A stretch of 50,765 nucleotides of DNA from a virus (lineage: Duplodnaviria > Caudoviricetes). Location: the IMG/VR virus record IMGVR_UViG_3300048589_000316, positions 1 to 50,765 of that record. One strand, 5' to 3'. The notes under the pieces were generated by a model. The model was not told the origin of the DNA and searched no databases. It worked only from the letters and a program-made list of their open reading frames with translations. This document shows positions 6,319 to 25,488 of the stretch, one piece after another. A program made the translations under genes and the position numbers. How positions within the stretch are numbered: the first letter of the stretch is position 1; the number at the start of each line of letters is the position of its first letter.

Positions 6319-6496
6319 CTGCCCACAATTTTTTAGCTATTTCAACCTTTCCTTTCAGATCCTTGACTTTCTTTGAAGCATATGCTAAAGAATATGAATG
6401 ATCTCTTTTGATAGTACCATCCTTCAATCCTTTTTGGTATTCCTGATCGCATTGAGCGACGAATACATTTGGGCAATATTTTCTGTAAATATTCAT
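6311..6496 (-). pseudogene. Internally deleted DUF3560-like protein
   Basis: N-terminus (MNIYRKYCPNVFVAQC) joined directly to C-terminus (GLKDGTIKRDHSYSLAYA...AKKLW) of a longer Bacteroidota phage family recalled from memory. Confidence 0.55.
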
Positions 6497-6530
6497 GATG
6501 TTATTTATAAATGATTAAATTTTTATTTTT

Positions 6531-6583
6531 TGATAACGTAGTATATAATACATTTAAAAACGTATCATATACGGTCGTTATAC
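6531..6583 (+). repeat. attC-like site 1 (minimal, 53 bp)
   Basis: TGATAAC-GTA-GTATATAATACATTT / AAACGTATCATATAC-GGTC-GTTATAC. Confidence 0.75.
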
Positions 6584-6637
6584 ACAAGCGTAGGAAGTGC
6601 AGTACTTCGATTAAACACCTGTGCAAACTTGCCATAA

Positions 6638-6826
6638 TTATTTTTTGCCATCGCTCTTACAATTTTTCAAATTGTTTAGGAATTGCTTTAGTGGTTCTTC
6701 CCAATGTTTAGCAAGTTTTTGAGAGCCGTTTACAGCTTTCACTAAAGTAGTGTCGGGCATTTTTAACTGTCGTTCAATACCTCTAAGGCTTAACGAGTCT
6801 TTGTTTTTTCTTAGCCAATCAATCAT
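6638..6826 (-). CDS. Small HTH DNA-binding protein (cassette 1)
   Basis: LSLRGIERQLKMPDTTLVKAV helix-turn-helix pattern; coupled to the upstream gene. Confidence 0.6.
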   Translation of the reverse strand: MIDWLRKNKDSLSLRGIERQLKMPDTTLVKAVNGSQKLAKHWEEPLKQFLNNLKNCKSDGKK

Positions 6827-7533
6827 TACTTTAAATTTATTTTATTAATAACTTTCCCCATGCTTGTCCAGCTTTTTGTAACCTTACATGAGATGGAAAT
6901 TTCATCTCCTTTATTTCCAAGGCATTTCCCTGTATATTGGTAAATATTATTTTCACAGTCAATTAATCTTTGTGCTGTCCCCCATTCAGTTTCCCATTTT
7001 GATACAATCGTTAATTTTCTGTCAACTTTTACACTATCAATAGGAAGGGCAGGATTTGTAGTGTTTTCATTTTCTTCTAAAATTAAAATTTTAGATAATT
7101 CCCCGTATTCTTTAAGTTCTTCAGATAACATTTTGCTTTTAACATTCATATTGTTATAAGCCCAAAATAAATATTTAGGGTCAATGTCAAAAACTTCCGC
7201 TGCTGTTTTACCTGAATATTTACCAAAAGGAAAAGTATTGCTTTGTCTACGTGAACCACACAATTCATCTATTTCTATTTCAATTTGATACCTACCTATT
7301 TTTTTTCGAGCTTTCAAAATAGCTTCATCCAAATCAATAGCCAAATTCCCTAAATACGTGTCTTTTGCATATTTATTAAAAACCTTTGGGACAGAATACA
7401 TAACAAACATAACATCTTTAGACCCTTCTGATTGTCCTGATGTTATTAAAAATCTGCGGGTTTCGTGGATTTCACCTTTTAATATTTCTGTTAAATCTAT
7501 GTTACTTTCTTTGAAATTCGATAAAGTTGTCAT
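6826..7533 (-). CDS. Hypothetical protein with DUF3820/ExoX-C-like motif and possible C-terminal OB fold (cassette 1)
   Basis: FPFGKYSGK...DPKYLFWA motif; ATG at 7533 preferred over TTG 7557, which abuts the -7 box. Confidence 0.6.
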   Translation of the reverse strand: MTTLSNFKESNIDLTEILKGEIHETRRFLITSGQSEGSKDVMFVMYSVPKVFNKYAKDTYLGNLAIDLDEAILKARKKIGRYQIEIEIDELCGSRRQSNTFPFGKYSGKTAAEVFDIDPKYLFWAYNNMNVKSKMLSEELKEYGELSKILILEENENTTNPALPIDSVKVDRKLTIVSKWETEWGTAQRLIDCENNIYQYTGKCLGNKGDEISISCKVTKSWTSMGKVINKINLK

Positions 7534-7561
7534 AATCTTAGTTTTTCCGTTAAACAATATC

Positions 7562-7591
7562 CAAATATAAGGATAATATATTTAATATCCT
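7562..7591 (-). promoter_or_regulatory. Cassette-internal promoter (TATATTTG) with AGGATA..TATCCT inverted repeat
   Basis: Canonical Bacteroidota -7 box at 7562-7569; palindrome at 7570-7591. Confidence 0.55.
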
Positions 7592-7677
7592 AATATAAAG
7601 ATAAAAAAATAACCCCTCCCAAAAAAAATAATTATTACTTTCGTGTTTCAAATGAATGTAAGTGTTTAAACGCCAGT

Positions 7678-7771
7678 GTATAACAACGCATAAAAATAAA
7701 AGCCTTTGGTAAGGTAGTATTTCAAATCAGCGTTGTAGTGTCGGCTTCAATTCTTATGCAAACCGTTGTGC
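7678..7771 (+). repeat. attC-like site 2
   Basis: GTATAAC-AAC-GCATAAAAATAAAAGCC / GGCTTCAATTCTTATGC-AAACC-GTTGTGC. Confidence 0.8.
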
Positions 7772-7786
7772 TTCATTAAAACGAAA

Positions 7787-8237
7787 GCACAACATGCAAT
7801 ATAAAACATGCTGGCTTCCGTTCTTTTAATGAAGTTTGTGCTATTGGGAAGGAAAATAATAATGCCTCCCAACGCTCAACTACTTTTCAATTACAGGCCA
7901 ATTCCAATTCATAGGCTCATCTCCTTTATTCGCAGAAGTTACCCACAAATCCAAATTTCCATCTGTAATCACTTTCAAGTTCACGCACTCATCACTCCAA
8001 ACGGCTGTAATGATTGCAGGTAACTTGTCTTGCGTGTTGCAGCCTCCATTTAAGGTGCTCGCTGCTTCCATTTTGGCTTTATCAGCCTCTGTTGTGTTGT
8101 AAATTACAACTCTACCAATTGTTGGTTTCATAATATAAATGGGTTTTACAAAGCCCGCCCAAGGCATTATTATTTTTGTTCTTCGTAGTTAAGTTCTGTG
8201 CTAAATTCCGCACGTTTCATATTGCTGTCCGTTGTAG
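7787..8237 (+). repeat. attC-like site 3, with a whole gene in its loop
   Basis: GCACAAC-AT-GCAATATAAAACATGC / GCACGTTTCATATTGC-TGTCC-GTTGTAG; arms about 400 bp apart. Confidence 0.7.
7880..8167 (-). CDS. Conserved small phage hypothetical protein (true start probably MKPTIGRVV)
   Basis: KPTIGRVV..PAIITAVW..VNLKV..WNWP pattern typical of small phage proteins. Confidence 0.7.
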   Translation of the reverse strand: MPWAGFVKPIYIMKPTIGRVVIYNTTEADKAKMEAASTLNGGCNTQDKLPAIITAVWSDECVNLKVITDGNLDLWVTSANKGDEPMNWNWPVIEK

Positions 8238-8248
8238 TGCATTAAAAA

Positions 8249-8566
8249 CTATTTCTTTAATGCTCGGTCTGTATAATCTCGCTGTACAAAGTTTCCGCAT
8301 TTCCAACAGGTTTTATTACCGTCTTTAGGTTTAGTACTTTTGCCAGTATCATAGCCACAGCGAGTGCAAGGCTTATACCAAATGTCAAAGTCACCTAACA
8401 CACGTTTGGGTTTGTTTTTACTGTGTACAACAACAGGTATAGCAAATAATTTTACTATATCCTGTGCCAAAGCCTCAAACTTATCTGTAAAAATCGCATC
8501 ATTAAAATTATCTACCTCACTTTTATAGGCGTGTAATAATTCCATTATGTATTCATTTTTTGCCAT
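8249..8566 (-). CDS. Hypothetical Zn-ribbon protein that reads through an attC arm
   Basis: CTRC...CWKC motifs; VKLFAIPVV is encoded by the site-4 left arm. Confidence 0.65.
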   Translation of the reverse strand: MAKNEYIMELLHAYKSEVDNFNDAIFTDKFEALAQDIVKLFAIPVVVHSKNKPKRVLGDFDIWYKPCTRCGYDTGKSTKPKDGNKTCWKCGNFVQRDYTDRALKK

Positions 8567-14072: not shown

Positions 14073-14543
14073 TTAGTTTTTTATTATTAACTCAACTCTT
14101 AATTTAATTGCATGGTTAACCTTTTCTACAATAGTTTTGGTGCCCATATTTTCATTACATTTTTCATGTGCTAAAACTTTATTGGAAAGTTTCTCACTAC
14201 CACCTGCTGTTAATGGGTCAAGATGTTCAACGGTAATATCATCATCCATTAATTGACCACAATAGAAACAAGCCCATCCGTCACGTTTGATCAGGTTTCT
14301 TCGATCCTTTGCATAACTGCTTTTTCTCTTAGTTCTGACCGGCCTACCATCCCATGGTATATTTCTCCAAAAACAATTGATCGCTCTTTCAGTGTACTTG
14401 TTTCCACATTTTCCTGATTTATAAAGCACTCCAACCTCTAAACCTTTAAACCTAAGTTCTTCATGCTCATTGGTAACTGGAAGTATTTCTGCACCTCGAT
14501 CTGATAGCCACTTTTCTAAAACATCTGTTTTCGGAATCTTCAT
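14073..14543 (-). CDS. HNH endonuclease
   Basis: CFYCG..TVEHLDP...GG...N..LAHEKCN. Confidence 0.85.
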   Translation of the reverse strand: MKIPKTDVLEKWLSDRGAEILPVTNEHEELRFKGLEVGVLYKSGKCGNKYTERAINCFWRNIPWDGRPVRTKRKSSYAKDRRNLIKRDGWACFYCGQLMDDDITVEHLDPLTAGGSEKLSNKVLAHEKCNENMGTKTIVEKVNHAIKLRVELIIKN

Positions 14544-19172: not shown

Positions 19173-19715
19173 TTAATTTTTTTTAAGTCGATCTAAACTA
19201 AACCCTTTTTCCTTTGCCCATTCTGGATTTTCTTCTATTTCTCTATGACCTTCATGTGATACAGGAAGAAACCACCTTACATCTAACCAAAGTGGAATAT
19301 CGTTATCCCTAGCCCAATCATCTGCATATCCTATCTTTCCCATCATATGATGAACTTGGGTTGCAATTGATCCTTTTACCCTACAATACTTGTTTTCTGG
19401 TTTACTAAGAAATTCCTTTCTTAATGTAGAATATTTATTAAGCACTTTGGAGTGTTTCTTTGATTGCTTGTTAATTTTATACGTCTTGCTTTTTGATGCC
19501 TGTTTACCGTCAATCCTATGGCAGTTATTAGAGCAATACGGTTGTGTGCTTAGAAGTGGCCTAAACTCGTTTTCGCATCCTGATCTCCGACATACTTTTA
19601 AACCATCCTTTTGGTTTGCTTCATTATAGCACCTTTGGCTACAGTATGGAACTAATGGATTCTTTTTAATAAATTCCTTTTTGCATTGTGGATTTTTGCA
19701 CTTTGATTTTTTCAT
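19173..19715 (-). CDS. Zn-finger repeat plus HNH-like nuclease (NinG-like)
   Basis: Two C....C...F......YCS..C repeats; ATQVHH and H.GH.EIE motifs. Confidence 0.65.
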   Translation of the reverse strand: MKKSKCKNPQCKKEFIKKNPLVPYCSQRCYNEANQKDGLKVCRRSGCENEFRPLLSTQPYCSNNCHRIDGKQASKSKTYKINKQSKKHSKVLNKYSTLRKEFLSKPENKYCRVKGSIATQVHHMMGKIGYADDWARDNDIPLWLDVRWFLPVSHEGHREIEENPEWAKEKGFSLDRLKKN

Positions 19716-20257: not shown

Positions 20258-20755
20258 TTATTTATGGTTAATACTCAAAATCTGTGATTGTGTAAAGTCG
20301 TTAACTTTCAGCATTTCATTTGGGTACGGAACTGCCCAATCCAATTCAACTGCAGCAAATATCACACAATCTTCCATAAACTTCTTGAACATATCAAATG
20401 TAACCTCACTTTCTTGATTGTTCAATCTGTGACCCTCTCGCTTCCACTCGTCTAATTCTGGATCATAAGTTTCCTTAAATAACATTCTTTCTCTTAACAG
20501 ATAATCTACCTCACTTTTTGATAATTGATTTCCATGGTAGTAAAATGCCTTTTGAAGTTCTGGAACAATAACGCTAAAGTAATACTTTCTCTGCTGATGG
20601 GTAAATGATCCACCTCTTTTTGTTATGGTAATTTCAATATTTTGATTTTTGAATGTAGAGATCCGCTTGACAAATTGTGGCCTATTATAAATAAACATAG
20701 TACCATTGTCTGTAATTTTTCCAAACTCACTTGCTACAATCTGATCGTTACTCAT
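20258..20755 (-). CDS. NinB/Orf-like recombination protein
   Basis: THQQRKYYF.VIV motif; located in the recombination module. Confidence 0.55.
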   Translation of the reverse strand: MSNDQIVASEFGKITDNGTMFIYNRPQFVKRISTFKNQNIEITITKRGGSFTHQQRKYYFSVIVPELQKAFYYHGNQLSKSEVDYLLRERMLFKETYDPELDEWKREGHRLNNQESEVTFDMFKKFMEDCVIFAAVELDWAVPYPNEMLKVNDFTQSQILSINHK

Positions 20756-21281
20756 AACTAAACAATGTTTTCGTTTCCTGATTGATCACGTTTTCAATTA
20801 CCCAATCTGGTCTGGTTAAAATTTGTTGAAAACCCCACCATGCAATACAACATGCATCACCAGTTTTAAGATTTATGTTTTTAGATCCAAACCGACTAAT
20901 GGCAAATTCCTTCCAACAATTCTTTTGATTTTTATACTTCTTAGGATCATACCCCAATAACTTTATATCCTTCTGCCATGTTCTACTAGGAACCTCGATT
21001 ATAGGCATTCTCATGATACGAAAACAAGTTATCAGGGAATTGTAGTTAGCCAACATTTTTGCAATTCTAAACGCCTTGCCGGGATGGGCATCAGCATCTG
21101 AACTCCAAACCCCAACCTTTTCAATAAACACTACAAACATTCCATATGTACGTTTCATTTCATGTGCAAAAACATGGACTTCTTCTGGTTTATCTGGCAT
21201 CTTAATAATAATGGTCTTACCATTGATCAGAAAACATATACCTCCACCCTTTCCACTATCGATACCCATTTGACCTATCAT
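20748..21281 (-). CDS. RuvC-like Holliday junction resolvase
   Basis: GIDSGKGGG, VFIEKV, P...WQK and DACCIA motifs. Confidence 0.8.
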   Translation of the reverse strand: MIGQMGIDSGKGGGICFLINGKTIIIKMPDKPEEVHVFAHEMKRTYGMFVVFIEKVGVWSSDADAHPGKAFRIAKMLANYNSLITCFRIMRMPIIEVPSRTWQKDIKLLGYDPKKYKNQKNCWKEFAISRFGSKNINLKTGDACCIAWWGFQQILTRPDWVIENVINQETKTLFSYE

Positions 21282-23852: not shown

Positions 23853-24731
23853 CTAAATTTTAGGTTTATACCATCCTGTTCTTTGAACTGATTCGTAAGG
23901 AGTCATAAACCTCCAAAATGAATGACTCTGGTGCCATAGGTTATGATCAATACAATATTTAAAAGCCTGTAATACTTGAAGATAAAACCGCTTAAATTCA
24001 TGCAACAAACTTGGATCACATCTGAACTTATTTATTCCGAATGGTTCACTTGTTTCAACAACTAGCCAATAGTAATCAGGATAAACAAATTTAGTTCTTT
24101 CAATTGCCAATGTATAACCTCCTGCCTGTAGGCCATAGTCAAAATTCCATATTGATTTTTGAAACTTGGATCTTTCAGCACTTTGCGATGTCTTTAAATC
24201 ACATATCCAAGGAACACGATCATAATAATCAGATCTCATATCCAACTTGCTTAAACTCCTTAATCCTGTCTCACGATCCGTCCAATAGATTTCATCCTGC
24301 ACACTTGCCTTACCTTCCAAGAACATCTGAACATCTTCATGGTTTATAGCCCTTTGATACATCTGAAAACAGTTATCGATCTCTTGTGCTGTAACACAAA
24401 GTTTACCAACATTGTCTGCTAGAAATTCAGCTTTCGCCGCCCTTGATCCAGTTCCAGAAAAAACAGGCATTTCTACAATTGTACTATCTACAAGTTCCGG
24501 CTGTAATAACATTAATTCAAAAACATTTCCTGTATCAAATGCTTTACTTGATTTCTTATCACCGATCTTGTATTGAATAAAATCCCATGGACTTGTAACA
24601 AAGTGTTTTAAAGCCGAATAACTCAATCTAGGATTTTCAAGAAATTCAGCAATCATATGCTGATAATCTGGTGCATCTTCCTTTTGGATCTGCTTCAACT
24701 TATCCCATAGAGGTGTTTTACTTTTTACCAT
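23853..24731 (-). CDS. PD-(D/E)XK exonuclease (RecE/DUF3799-like)
   Basis: LSYSALK, KLD...DLKTS and Y.LQA..Y motifs. Confidence 0.85.
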   Translation of the reverse strand: MVKSKTPLWDKLKQIQKEDAPDYQHMIAEFLENPRLSYSALKHFVTSPWDFIQYKIGDKKSSKAFDTGNVFELMLLQPELVDSTIVEMPVFSGTGSRAAKAEFLADNVGKLCVTAQEIDNCFQMYQRAINHEDVQMFLEGKASVQDEIYWTDRETGLRSLSKLDMRSDYYDRVPWICDLKTSQSAERSKFQKSIWNFDYGLQAGGYTLAIERTKFVYPDYYWLVVETSEPFGINKFRCDPSLLHEFKRFYLQVLQAFKYCIDHNLWHQSHSFWRFMTPYESVQRTGWYKPKI

Positions 24732-25488
24732 TTTCTTTCTGTTTTTTAGCTAATACCTTTATTTGCTCCCTTACCAATCTTGAAAACTTCATATTTGGAA
24801 TCCATTCAGTTTGCTGATTTGCCCATTCAACTAGATCAAGCTGATCAGTGAAAGTATATATCGTATTAAATACATCTTCTGGTAGATCAGTTTCTTCCAC
24901 TTGACTTTCAGCTTCTTCCATTCCTTGCATTTCTTCTGCAGGTGTCGGTTCATATCCTGCCGCTTTTATCAAGAACGCAAAACTCATTCTTGCCGCCTTT
25001 CCTATGGCTCTGGTTTGGGCCATTGACAAGATACTATATTCATCAAAAGTATGCTTTGCTGTTTCTTCATTGGAACACATGGCAAAAGCCTGTGACATTA
25101 TAGACTCCTTACCATCTTTGTAAGAAACAAATTGTGCTTCTGCAAAATACTTGTAAAGTTTAGTAGAATGTTTTTTCTCAACTTTCTGTCTATTCACCCA
25201 GGCCATCCATTTAAATTCTACAGGAGCATAACTAGATTCATTTTTATAAGAAACTATCTTTCCTGTCAATCCCAACAATCCTGCAGCGAATTGCCAACCC
25301 TCTACCAAAACATAATCCTTATTCTGGATCACTGTTGAAAGATTTTGGCTCTTTACATAGGTTGCAACTTCCTGTGCAATTTTCACTACTTCCTGCGGAT
25401 CTGTCAAACCGAATTTCTTCATGTCCGATTGAGTTACAATTAACTCTTGTTTCTCCCATGGCTTTAAACTATTTTCTTCCATCTTCAT
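24718..25488 (-). CDS. Putative single-strand annealing protein
   Basis: KDYVLVEGWQ, SMAQTRA and TPAEEM motifs; paired with the exonuclease. Confidence 0.6.
   Translation of the reverse strand: MKMEENSLKPWEKQELIVTQSDMKKFGLTDPQEVVKIAQEVATYVKSQNLSTVIQNKDYVLVEGWQFAAGLLGLTGKIVSYKNESSYAPVEFKWMAWVNRQKVEKKHSTKLYKYFAEAQFVSYKDGKESIMSQAFAMCSNEETAKHTFDEYSILSMAQTRAIGKAARMSFAFLIKAAGYEPTPAEEMQGMEEAESQVEETDLPEDVFNTIYTFTDQLDLVEWANQQTEWIPNMKFSRLVREQIKVLAKKQKENGKK

Follow-up and report, generated by a model that had tools for sequence, protein, structure and literature searches.

Can a gene travel inside the loop of the very site that mobilizes it? This question is raised by a short minus-strand locus in the IMG/VR virus record IMGVR_UViG_3300048589_000316, which we analysed as one stretch of 50,765 nucleotides (the window). 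The original prediction took the locus for an inside-out integron cassette, in which the variable terminal loop of an attC site serves as cargo space. The record is a complete virus genome of 50,765 bp with direct terminal repeats, in which every long open reading frame (ORF) is on the minus strand. Its genes code for terminase subunits, DNA methylases, a ParB-like nuclease, HNH endonucleases, a DnaB-type helicase, an exonuclease VIII-like protein, a Holliday-junction resolvase, an endolysin and tail proteins. Comparison with GenBank phages by blastn gave a single DNA similarity, the methylase that neighbours the module and is common to Cellulophaga, Tenacibaculum, Polaribacter and Flavobacterium phages. 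In the complete 50,765-bp record we found no match to IntI (TIGR02249), no match to tyrosine recombinases (PF00589) and no serine recombinase. From this gene content, the methylase similarity and the absence of recombinases, we conclude that the source is a virulent Bacteroidota-type phage and not an integron platform. A tRNA scan of the whole 50,765-nt stretch found none. The replication region contains two HNH endonuclease-like genes (14073–14543 and 19173–19715, minus strand). At 23853–25488 (minus strand), the exonuclease VIII-like gene precedes a gene for a 256-aa protein of unknown family, with the Holliday-junction resolvase gene nearby (20748–21281, minus strand); this group of genes may be a phage recombination module able to use short homologies.

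The repeat structure on which the prediction was built is present. Two 16-nt arms at 7796–7811 and 8210–8225 are complementary at 14 of 16 positions, lie 398 nt apart and enclose the ORF 7880–8167 as described. On the coding (minus) strand the two mismatches become G·T wobbles, which raises the pairing to 16/16. Nested inside these outer arms is a second pair, 7848–7867 with 8162–8181 (18/20). With a threshold of 14/16 and a spacing of 50–600 nt, the region 7500–8400 contains two distinct pairs. The mean over 200 mononucleotide shuffles of this region was 0.115, and two pairs were reached in 1% of them; among 56 other 901-nt tiles of the window, four contain one such pair and none contains two. 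Two long inverted pairs within 901 nt therefore exceed chance. A self-search with the flanks found no further copies within the window among the matches listed. A 29-nt palindrome (GTTGTGCTTCATTAAAACGAAAGCACAAC) lies at 7765–7793, with a 72-nt hairpin on one side and the left outer arm on the other. The original prediction saw in it an empty cassette body. This part has to be revised, because the 29-mer is instead the conserved terminal hairpin of the same module. In minus-strand order, the parts of the locus are:

8229–8235, minus strand: 5′ border; sense ACAAC (8235–8231) can pair with GTTGT (7793–7789) to give the base helix P0
8210–8225, minus strand: 5′ arm of the outer long-range helix, sense GCAATATGAAACGTGC; compensatory variants in loci L176/L189/L368 and L369
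8162–8181, minus strand: 5′ arm of the inner pair, an A-rich stretch plus GCCT; core 8162–8176
8140–8165, minus strand: predicted H-type pseudoknot leader, 26 nt, ending 8 nt before the ATG at 8131
7880–8131, minus strand: cargo gene, 83 aa, small SH3/Tudor-like β-barrel, phrog_2293; the mechanical ORF extends to 8167
7846–7870, minus strand: 3′ hairpin H1, directly after the stop codon, with a 12-nt loop at 7853–7864
7796–7811, minus strand: 3′ arm of the outer long-range helix, sense GCATGTTTTATATTGC
7765–7793, minus strand: terminal hairpin, 9 bp with an 11-nt loop; its 5′ strand is also the partner in P0
7688–7759, minus strand: gene-less hairpin downstream of the module, arms 7688–7704 and 7743–7759
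7590–7700, minus strand: degenerate second 5′ flank, which aligns with the 5′ flanks of other brackets; its leader has decayed

Here and below, L-numbers are labels of compared loci, and we call the mutually complementary flanks a bracket. The plus-strand heptamer CCGTTGT stands at both borders, with the direct repeat at 7763–7769. The motif of the inner 5′ arm is unique in the window among the matches listed. Since the H1 loop (7853–7864) is complementary to the A-rich stretch preceding the leader, H1 would supply the 3′ arm of the inner pair (7848–7867). The hairpin at 7688–7759, with 17-nt arms that are 82% complementary and a 38-nt loop, resembles the inner-arm pair. The window was counted as one full bracket and one relic.

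The reading that we favour, and to which we would give an even chance, is that 7763–8235 is a self-contained minus-strand accessory module in a structured mRNA bracket, the ends of which double as exchange points, and that it is not an attC site. The transcript would run through P0, the 16-bp outer helix, an inner pairing of 13–15 bp and the 26-nt pseudoknot leader into the 83-aa gene, and then through the hairpin with a loop complementary to the pre-leader stretch to the terminal hairpin. Arranged in this order, the flanks could close over the gene like a stalk. The bracket would act in the mRNA, possibly as an RNase III-type processing and stabilizing stalk, or alternatively as a switch between closed bracket and local hairpin that sets translation or termination. 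The leader would control translation initiation. Cargo would be swapped at the conserved short ends by the phage's own homologous recombination, a proposal beside which we cite the exonuclease VIII-like gene and the Holliday-junction resolvase.

The cargo itself offers little guidance on function. The ORF has matches in phrog_2293 and phrog_19300, neither of which has a known function; the protein model (pLDDT 94) is a small β-barrel with one helix, with weak structural matches to Tudor/SH3-like folds (E ≥ 0.3). A sequence search of the PDB with the cargo protein gave no match. The enclosed ORF was placed correctly between the arms, but its start is most likely at 8131 (83 aa) and not at 8167, because 105 of 115 homologues are 73–88 aa long, and the frame upstream of the second ATG is closed by an in-frame stop in one relative and shifted in another. 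With translation from 8131, positions 8132–8167 would be leader and not coding sequence. Short contigs from RNA libraries overlie 7894–8175, but contigs of this kind say nothing on transcription, ends or joints.

The leader can be drawn as two helices. S1 joins GCC (8165–8163) to GGC (8155–8153), and S2 joins TGGG (8161–8158) to CCCA (8143–8140). When up to 3 mismatches are allowed, the 22-nt core 8140–8161 has a single copy in the window. In IMG/VR it is present in at least 223 stretches, 108 of them with the G-C form of the third S2 pair and at least 115 further ones with the A-T form. In the G form, G faces C in 108 stretches and a non-C in none; in the A form, A faces T in 114 of 115 and C in one among the matches listed; C or T at the 5′ position was found in no IMG/VR stretch. 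The third S2 pair is thus G-C or A-T with a single exception among the at least 223 stretches listed. An alignment of 48 leaders has 95.3% of its cells paired. Here, pair 13–21 is CG in 36 leaders and UG in 12, pair 12–22 is CG in 45 and GC in three, and pair 18–33 is GC in 44 and AU in four. The S1 pairs are CG, GC and UG, and two of the four S1 pairs are without any unpaired cell. With two crossing helices that both covary, the leader is a predicted H-type pseudoknot.

This element keeps its distance to a start codon and changes its gene. Among 132 distinct contexts, 127 are evaluable, and in 124 of these an ATG located 4–12 nt 3′ of the leader opens a frame of at least 40 codons. The downstream proteins are small phage proteins that sort into 33 families with no relation to one another, and the 26-nt leader stands 7–12 nt ahead of their start codons. 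The distance between the preceding stop codon and the leader is 0–148 nt with a peak below 35 nt, which indicates no strict coupling. Of 17 matches in bacterial genomes, 15 are in Bacteroidota-titled records, the taxon names of which we take to belong to the phylum Bacteroidota. The loci with the leader are labelled L066–L173, L254–L367 and L370–L386. The leader and bracket elements span Bacteroidota phages from marine, freshwater and gut samples. Small H-type pseudoknot leaders are known from preQ1-I riboswitches and from the T4 gene 32 leader. The present leader resembles them in its two short helices, its A-rich third loop and a 3′ strand near the start codon; it differs in that the ligand-reading loop nucleotide is variable and that 33 unrelated families follow. 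A search of the region 7700–8280 against Rfam 15 returned no family at gathering score, preQ1 riboswitches included, and the best matches at permissive thresholds were unrelated families with 13–21 bits against gathering scores of 41–79. A 16-letter word of the leader occurs in no paper of the searched literature, where keyword searches also gave nothing relevant on a Bacteroides phage RNA motif or on phage cassettes with inverted repeats. Within these Rfam and literature searches, neither the leader pseudoknot nor the cargo-swapping bracket appears to have been described before. As a minor observation, the 3′ flank in L072, L118 and L150, downstream of a cargo beginning MSNFIGKK, consists of short GGCTMT-type repeats (TGGCTCTGGCTATGGC...) with no hairpin.

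The borders of the module coincide with breaks in homology. Loci L001–L003 are 99.9% identical to the window down to 7763 and then carry other DNA until 6580, whereas L004 and L005, which come from different phages and are 74% identical, share only 8234–7763 with the window. A third group of relatives shares 8225–7838, and one metagenome contig also diverges just before 7762. Both the module and the homology end at 7763, right after the terminal hairpin. AACG(G/T) stands at the start and end of every module, and the junctions fall right after it. In these comparisons the borders at 7763 and ~8234 are mosaic junctions, and the unit keeps its limits in several phage contexts. In the alignment of relatives, the non-coding flanks are more conserved than the gene, and only part of the relatives carry the accessory gene. 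For the upstream gene, four related loci have other neighbours and no bracket; they are too diverged to define an empty site. Profiles of the flanks (nhmmer, 370 sources) retrieved the training members and five weak extra matches.

The check proposed with the original prediction, namely to look for the same arms around other loop contents, gave a positive answer. In L121, arms and a terminal hairpin identical to those of the window enclose a 224-aa DNA methylase (PF01555), with the arms at 6431 and 7237, 790 nt apart. Close variants of the arms enclose a crAss001_48-like gene in L368 and another small gene in L369, and in L117 a bracket with 17-nt arms, 72 nt from each other, holds no gene. 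Conversely, L174 carries the cargo family of the window (84% identical) inside another bracket type, and a bracket of that same type encloses a different gene in L092. In a third bracket type, the inner pair measures 20 nt and the outer pair 18 nt; the cargo there comprises five further families, a Tad2-like one among them. In all loci found, the gene has the same orientation relative to the flanks. Judging from the Tad2-like (anti-Thoeris), DNA methylase and crAss001_48-related cargo, the sequence comparison suggests that leader/bracket modules carry counter-defence genes. The respective coordinates are L078:13995–14294 (minus strand) for the Tad2-like gene, L121:6517–7188 for the methylase and L368:2987–3184 for the crAss001_48-related gene. 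We also observed that L121, a 61-kb phage contig, contains two bracketed cassettes about 6 kb apart (58–477 and 6431–7283); one has a chimeric, poorly pairing outer helix, and the other has the window-identical arms and a decayed leader.

The long-range helices can be followed through their variants. Outer arms of the window type exist in three variants (window/L129, L176/L189/L368 and L369), which differ mutually by five compensated pairs and nevertheless each pair 16/16 with two G·T wobbles at identical positions. The inner pair is invariant within the window type; in L174 the inner arms have a different sequence and are still paired 13/13. The stems of H1 and of the terminal hairpin also vary among relatives with pairing kept. 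Compensatory changes preserve the predicted helices that enclose the gene. Among 117 distinct leader cassettes, eight have a cognate inner complement of at least 14 nt, and the maximum in 1,376 non-cognate comparisons is 12; in an earlier set, 9 of 64 have a complement of at least 15 nt, against a non-cognate maximum of 14 in 3,882 comparisons. Since only 8 of 117 leader cassettes have the complement, the long-range bracket is a subfamily and not a property of every leader. As another measure we tried the RNA duplex energy of whole flanks and discarded it, as cognate flanks were not separated (6 of 120 below the non-cognate first percentile) and there was no consistent strand bias.

These numbers bear directly on the alternative that survives best, although we consider it rather unlikely. 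It states that the module works like an ordinary moron, through its local elements alone (the leader, hairpins of the terminator type and a promoter yet unseen), and that the long-range complementarity is a functionless historical by-product, for example of an intergenic terminator hairpin that was split by an inserted leader-gene unit. The inner arms do resemble the halves of an A-tract/GC/T-tract terminator, and an intact hairpin of that kind adjoins at 7688–7759. The 109 of 117 leader cassettes in which the long-range complement is missing agree with this explanation, and so does the lineage of L006/L107, which combines the 5′ arm of one outer variant with the 3′ arm of another, pairs at 10/16 and retains the gene despite the broken outer helix. 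The minimum-energy fold of the sense RNA, which contains local hairpins only, points in the same direction. Against a by-product stand the five compensated pairs and two conserved wobbles across the three outer-arm variants, the inner complementarity that L174 keeps with a different sequence, and cognate complements far above the non-cognate ones. A phage moron is an extra accessory gene between conserved neighbours with its own promoter and terminator-like hairpins. The module is similar in that its gene is patchily present among relatives and has terminator-like hairpins of its own, but a conserved structured bracket is common to unrelated cargo, and no promoter emerged from a scan for sigma-70-type sites, which gave nine matches to a consensus that is not Bacteroidota-type, compared with 12.4 expected from shuffles.

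The preferred reading of a structured mRNA bracket requires that the transcript is the molecule that folds. The folding z-score is −5.25 for the sense strand and −3.42 for the other strand. The minimum-energy and centroid folds of the sense RNA contain neither long-range helix, and in the former the outer 3′ arm lies in the apical part of a local hairpin (7771–7842). The long-range helices are present in the fold of the plus-strand RNA and in the minus-strand DNA centroid. Folding the minus strand, as had been suggested, thus recovers the helices in the DNA centroid but not in the sense-RNA minimum-energy fold. Scored symmetrically, all helices together contain 29 G·T against 23 A·C pairs. The sense-strand wobble bias is limited to the outer helices (about 26 against 7), where the A·C pairs come from L073 and L158, both ill-defined. 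In the outer helix it is the coding strand that bears the wobbles, in all three window-type arm variants as well as in types B and C. The fusion of the bracket to an RNA pseudoknot leader located 8 nt from the start codon, together with leader covariation that includes U·G, the fixed start-codon distance, the sense-strand wobbles and the stronger sense folding, suggests that it is the transcript that folds. Binding of one protein by both arms, or folding of single-stranded DNA, would likewise preserve compensated inverted repeats.

For an mRNA stalk there is precedent. According to PMC8708148, RNase III duplexes flank 16S and 23S rRNA and occur in T7 early mRNA at sites such as R1.1. This source describes complements hundreds of nucleotides apart that close over a functional RNA, internal loops and G·U pairs, and a phage example of mRNA processing and protection (PMC8708148), all of which resemble the bracket. 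In our locus, the flanks offer an outer duplex of 16 bp and an inner one of 13–15 bp with compensatory changes, which the sense-RNA minimum-energy fold does not choose. The difference is that here a protein-coding gene with exchangeable content would be looped out, and that any cleavage is putative.

For exchange at the ends, the closest relatives may be the PeSLs (promoter-early stem-loops) of T4-type phages, which PMC4122927 proposes as mediators of modular gene shuffling through homologous recombination. Both systems place short conserved regulatory sequences at gene borders and at the junctions of indels and replacements (for PeSLs, PMC4122927), and homology in our case breaks at 7763 and ~8234 in several comparisons. 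PeSLs are local terminator-plus-promoter units with many copies per T4-like genome (PMC4122927), whereas the bracket flanks are complementary to each other across the gene, include a pseudoknot leader and occur in Bacteroidota phages. Of the PeSL composite of terminator stem-loop and early promoter, hairpins are present in the module; the sigma-70-type matches are the 9 against 12.4 expected. Instead of many copies, the window has one full bracket and one relic.

Little is known, outside T4-like phages, of the signals that accompany phage accessory and counter-defence genes in their rapid movement between genomes. A leader that proves to be a translation element would bear on gene expression in a phylum that largely does without Shine–Dalgarno initiation, and would help to find new accessory genes by the sequences that flank them. 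If the bracket is a processing stalk or a recombination site, it would represent a new mode of packaging for portable genes.

A second alternative, which we regard as improbable, moves the function of the bracket from RNA to DNA. The bracket would be a structure-specific recombination site, that is, an attC-like folded strand with the cargo in its terminal loop, and would be moved by a further recombinase, encoded by host or phage, or by template switching at the hairpin. This would explain why identical arms hold different cargo, why one bracket is gene-less, and why AACG(G/T) lies at the module ends with the junctions right after it; the long-range helices are also present in the DNA centroid fold. 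As described in PMC5027507, AAC/GTT triplets are the only conserved letters of attC sites, and G:T mispairs are enriched on one strand, the bottom strand. The base helix of the bracket uses these triplets, and mispairs on one strand are a trait of both. The likeness extends to unpaired spacers, a variable terminal part, variable cargo and short direct repeats at the cassette borders (PMC5027507). The complete phage is, however, without tyrosine or serine recombinase, and among five other bracket-bearing records PF00589 was found in the one provirus and not in the other four, which are incomplete. Furthermore, the wobble-bearing strand is the sense and not the bottom strand, and the leader joined to the bracket shows RNA-type covariation at a fixed distance to the start codon. 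Joints and circles were absent from the metagenome contigs, which could hardly have displayed them. A broader form of this proposal is a cassette system of Bacteroidota phages, in which an AAC/GTT bracket loads accessory genes, counter-defence genes included, into its terminal loop and moves as a unit by folded-strand recombination, as an IntI-less functional analogue of integron cassettes. We doubt this version as well, including its joint claim that the leader pseudoknot would provide translation signals to any gene that is loaded.

An invertible DNA switch, in which an invertase flips the segment between the inverted repeats, is a highly improbable explanation: the gene is indeed flanked by inverted repeats and has an ATG within the inner arm, but the genome is without serine or tyrosine recombinase, the antisense frame is unconserved (its length is 54 codons in the window and 39 in L004, and L006 has no such frame of at least 50 aa), and the orientation of the gene relative to the flanks is constant in all loci found.

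It remains to compare the locus with genuine attC sites. In the sense strand, the R boxes CTACAAC and GTTGTGC fit RYYYAAC at 5/7 and GTTRRRY at 6/7 positions, and the AAC/GTT triplets are present and paired in the base helix. Named attC sites measure 57–133 bp, and the site folds from the bottom strand, antisense to the cassette gene, as stated in PMC5027507. Compared with these dimensions, the bracket arms are 398–790 nt apart (398 nt in the window, 790 nt in L121), so that an ORF is enclosed in place of a compact non-coding hairpin. The bracket also differs in that it has no IntI, holds its cargo inside the hairpin and not beside it, favours the sense strand as the wobble-bearing one, and is fused to a translation-proximal RNA pseudoknot. 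Hence, despite R-box-like AAC/GTT pairing at the hairpin base and unpaired spacers, there is next to no chance that the element is a true integron attC whose variable terminal structure is oversized and which an IntI integrase recombines, given a complete genome without TIGR02249 or PF00589 matches, cores that fit at 5/7 and 6/7, an ORF inside the site, a reversed strand rule and Bacteroidota phages as hosts. The element is not an integron attC site. What holds of the inside-out cassette is its cassette-like behaviour and the predicted gene-in-the-loop topology, which is real and conserved; its identity as attC or integron does not hold, with IntI missing, partial R boxes and the strand reversed.

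Finally, we noticed that in one relative (L012/L081) the sequence after the cargo homologue ends in a stretch that resembles a tRNA T-arm (GGTTCGAATCC), and a tRNA gene may follow the cassette there.
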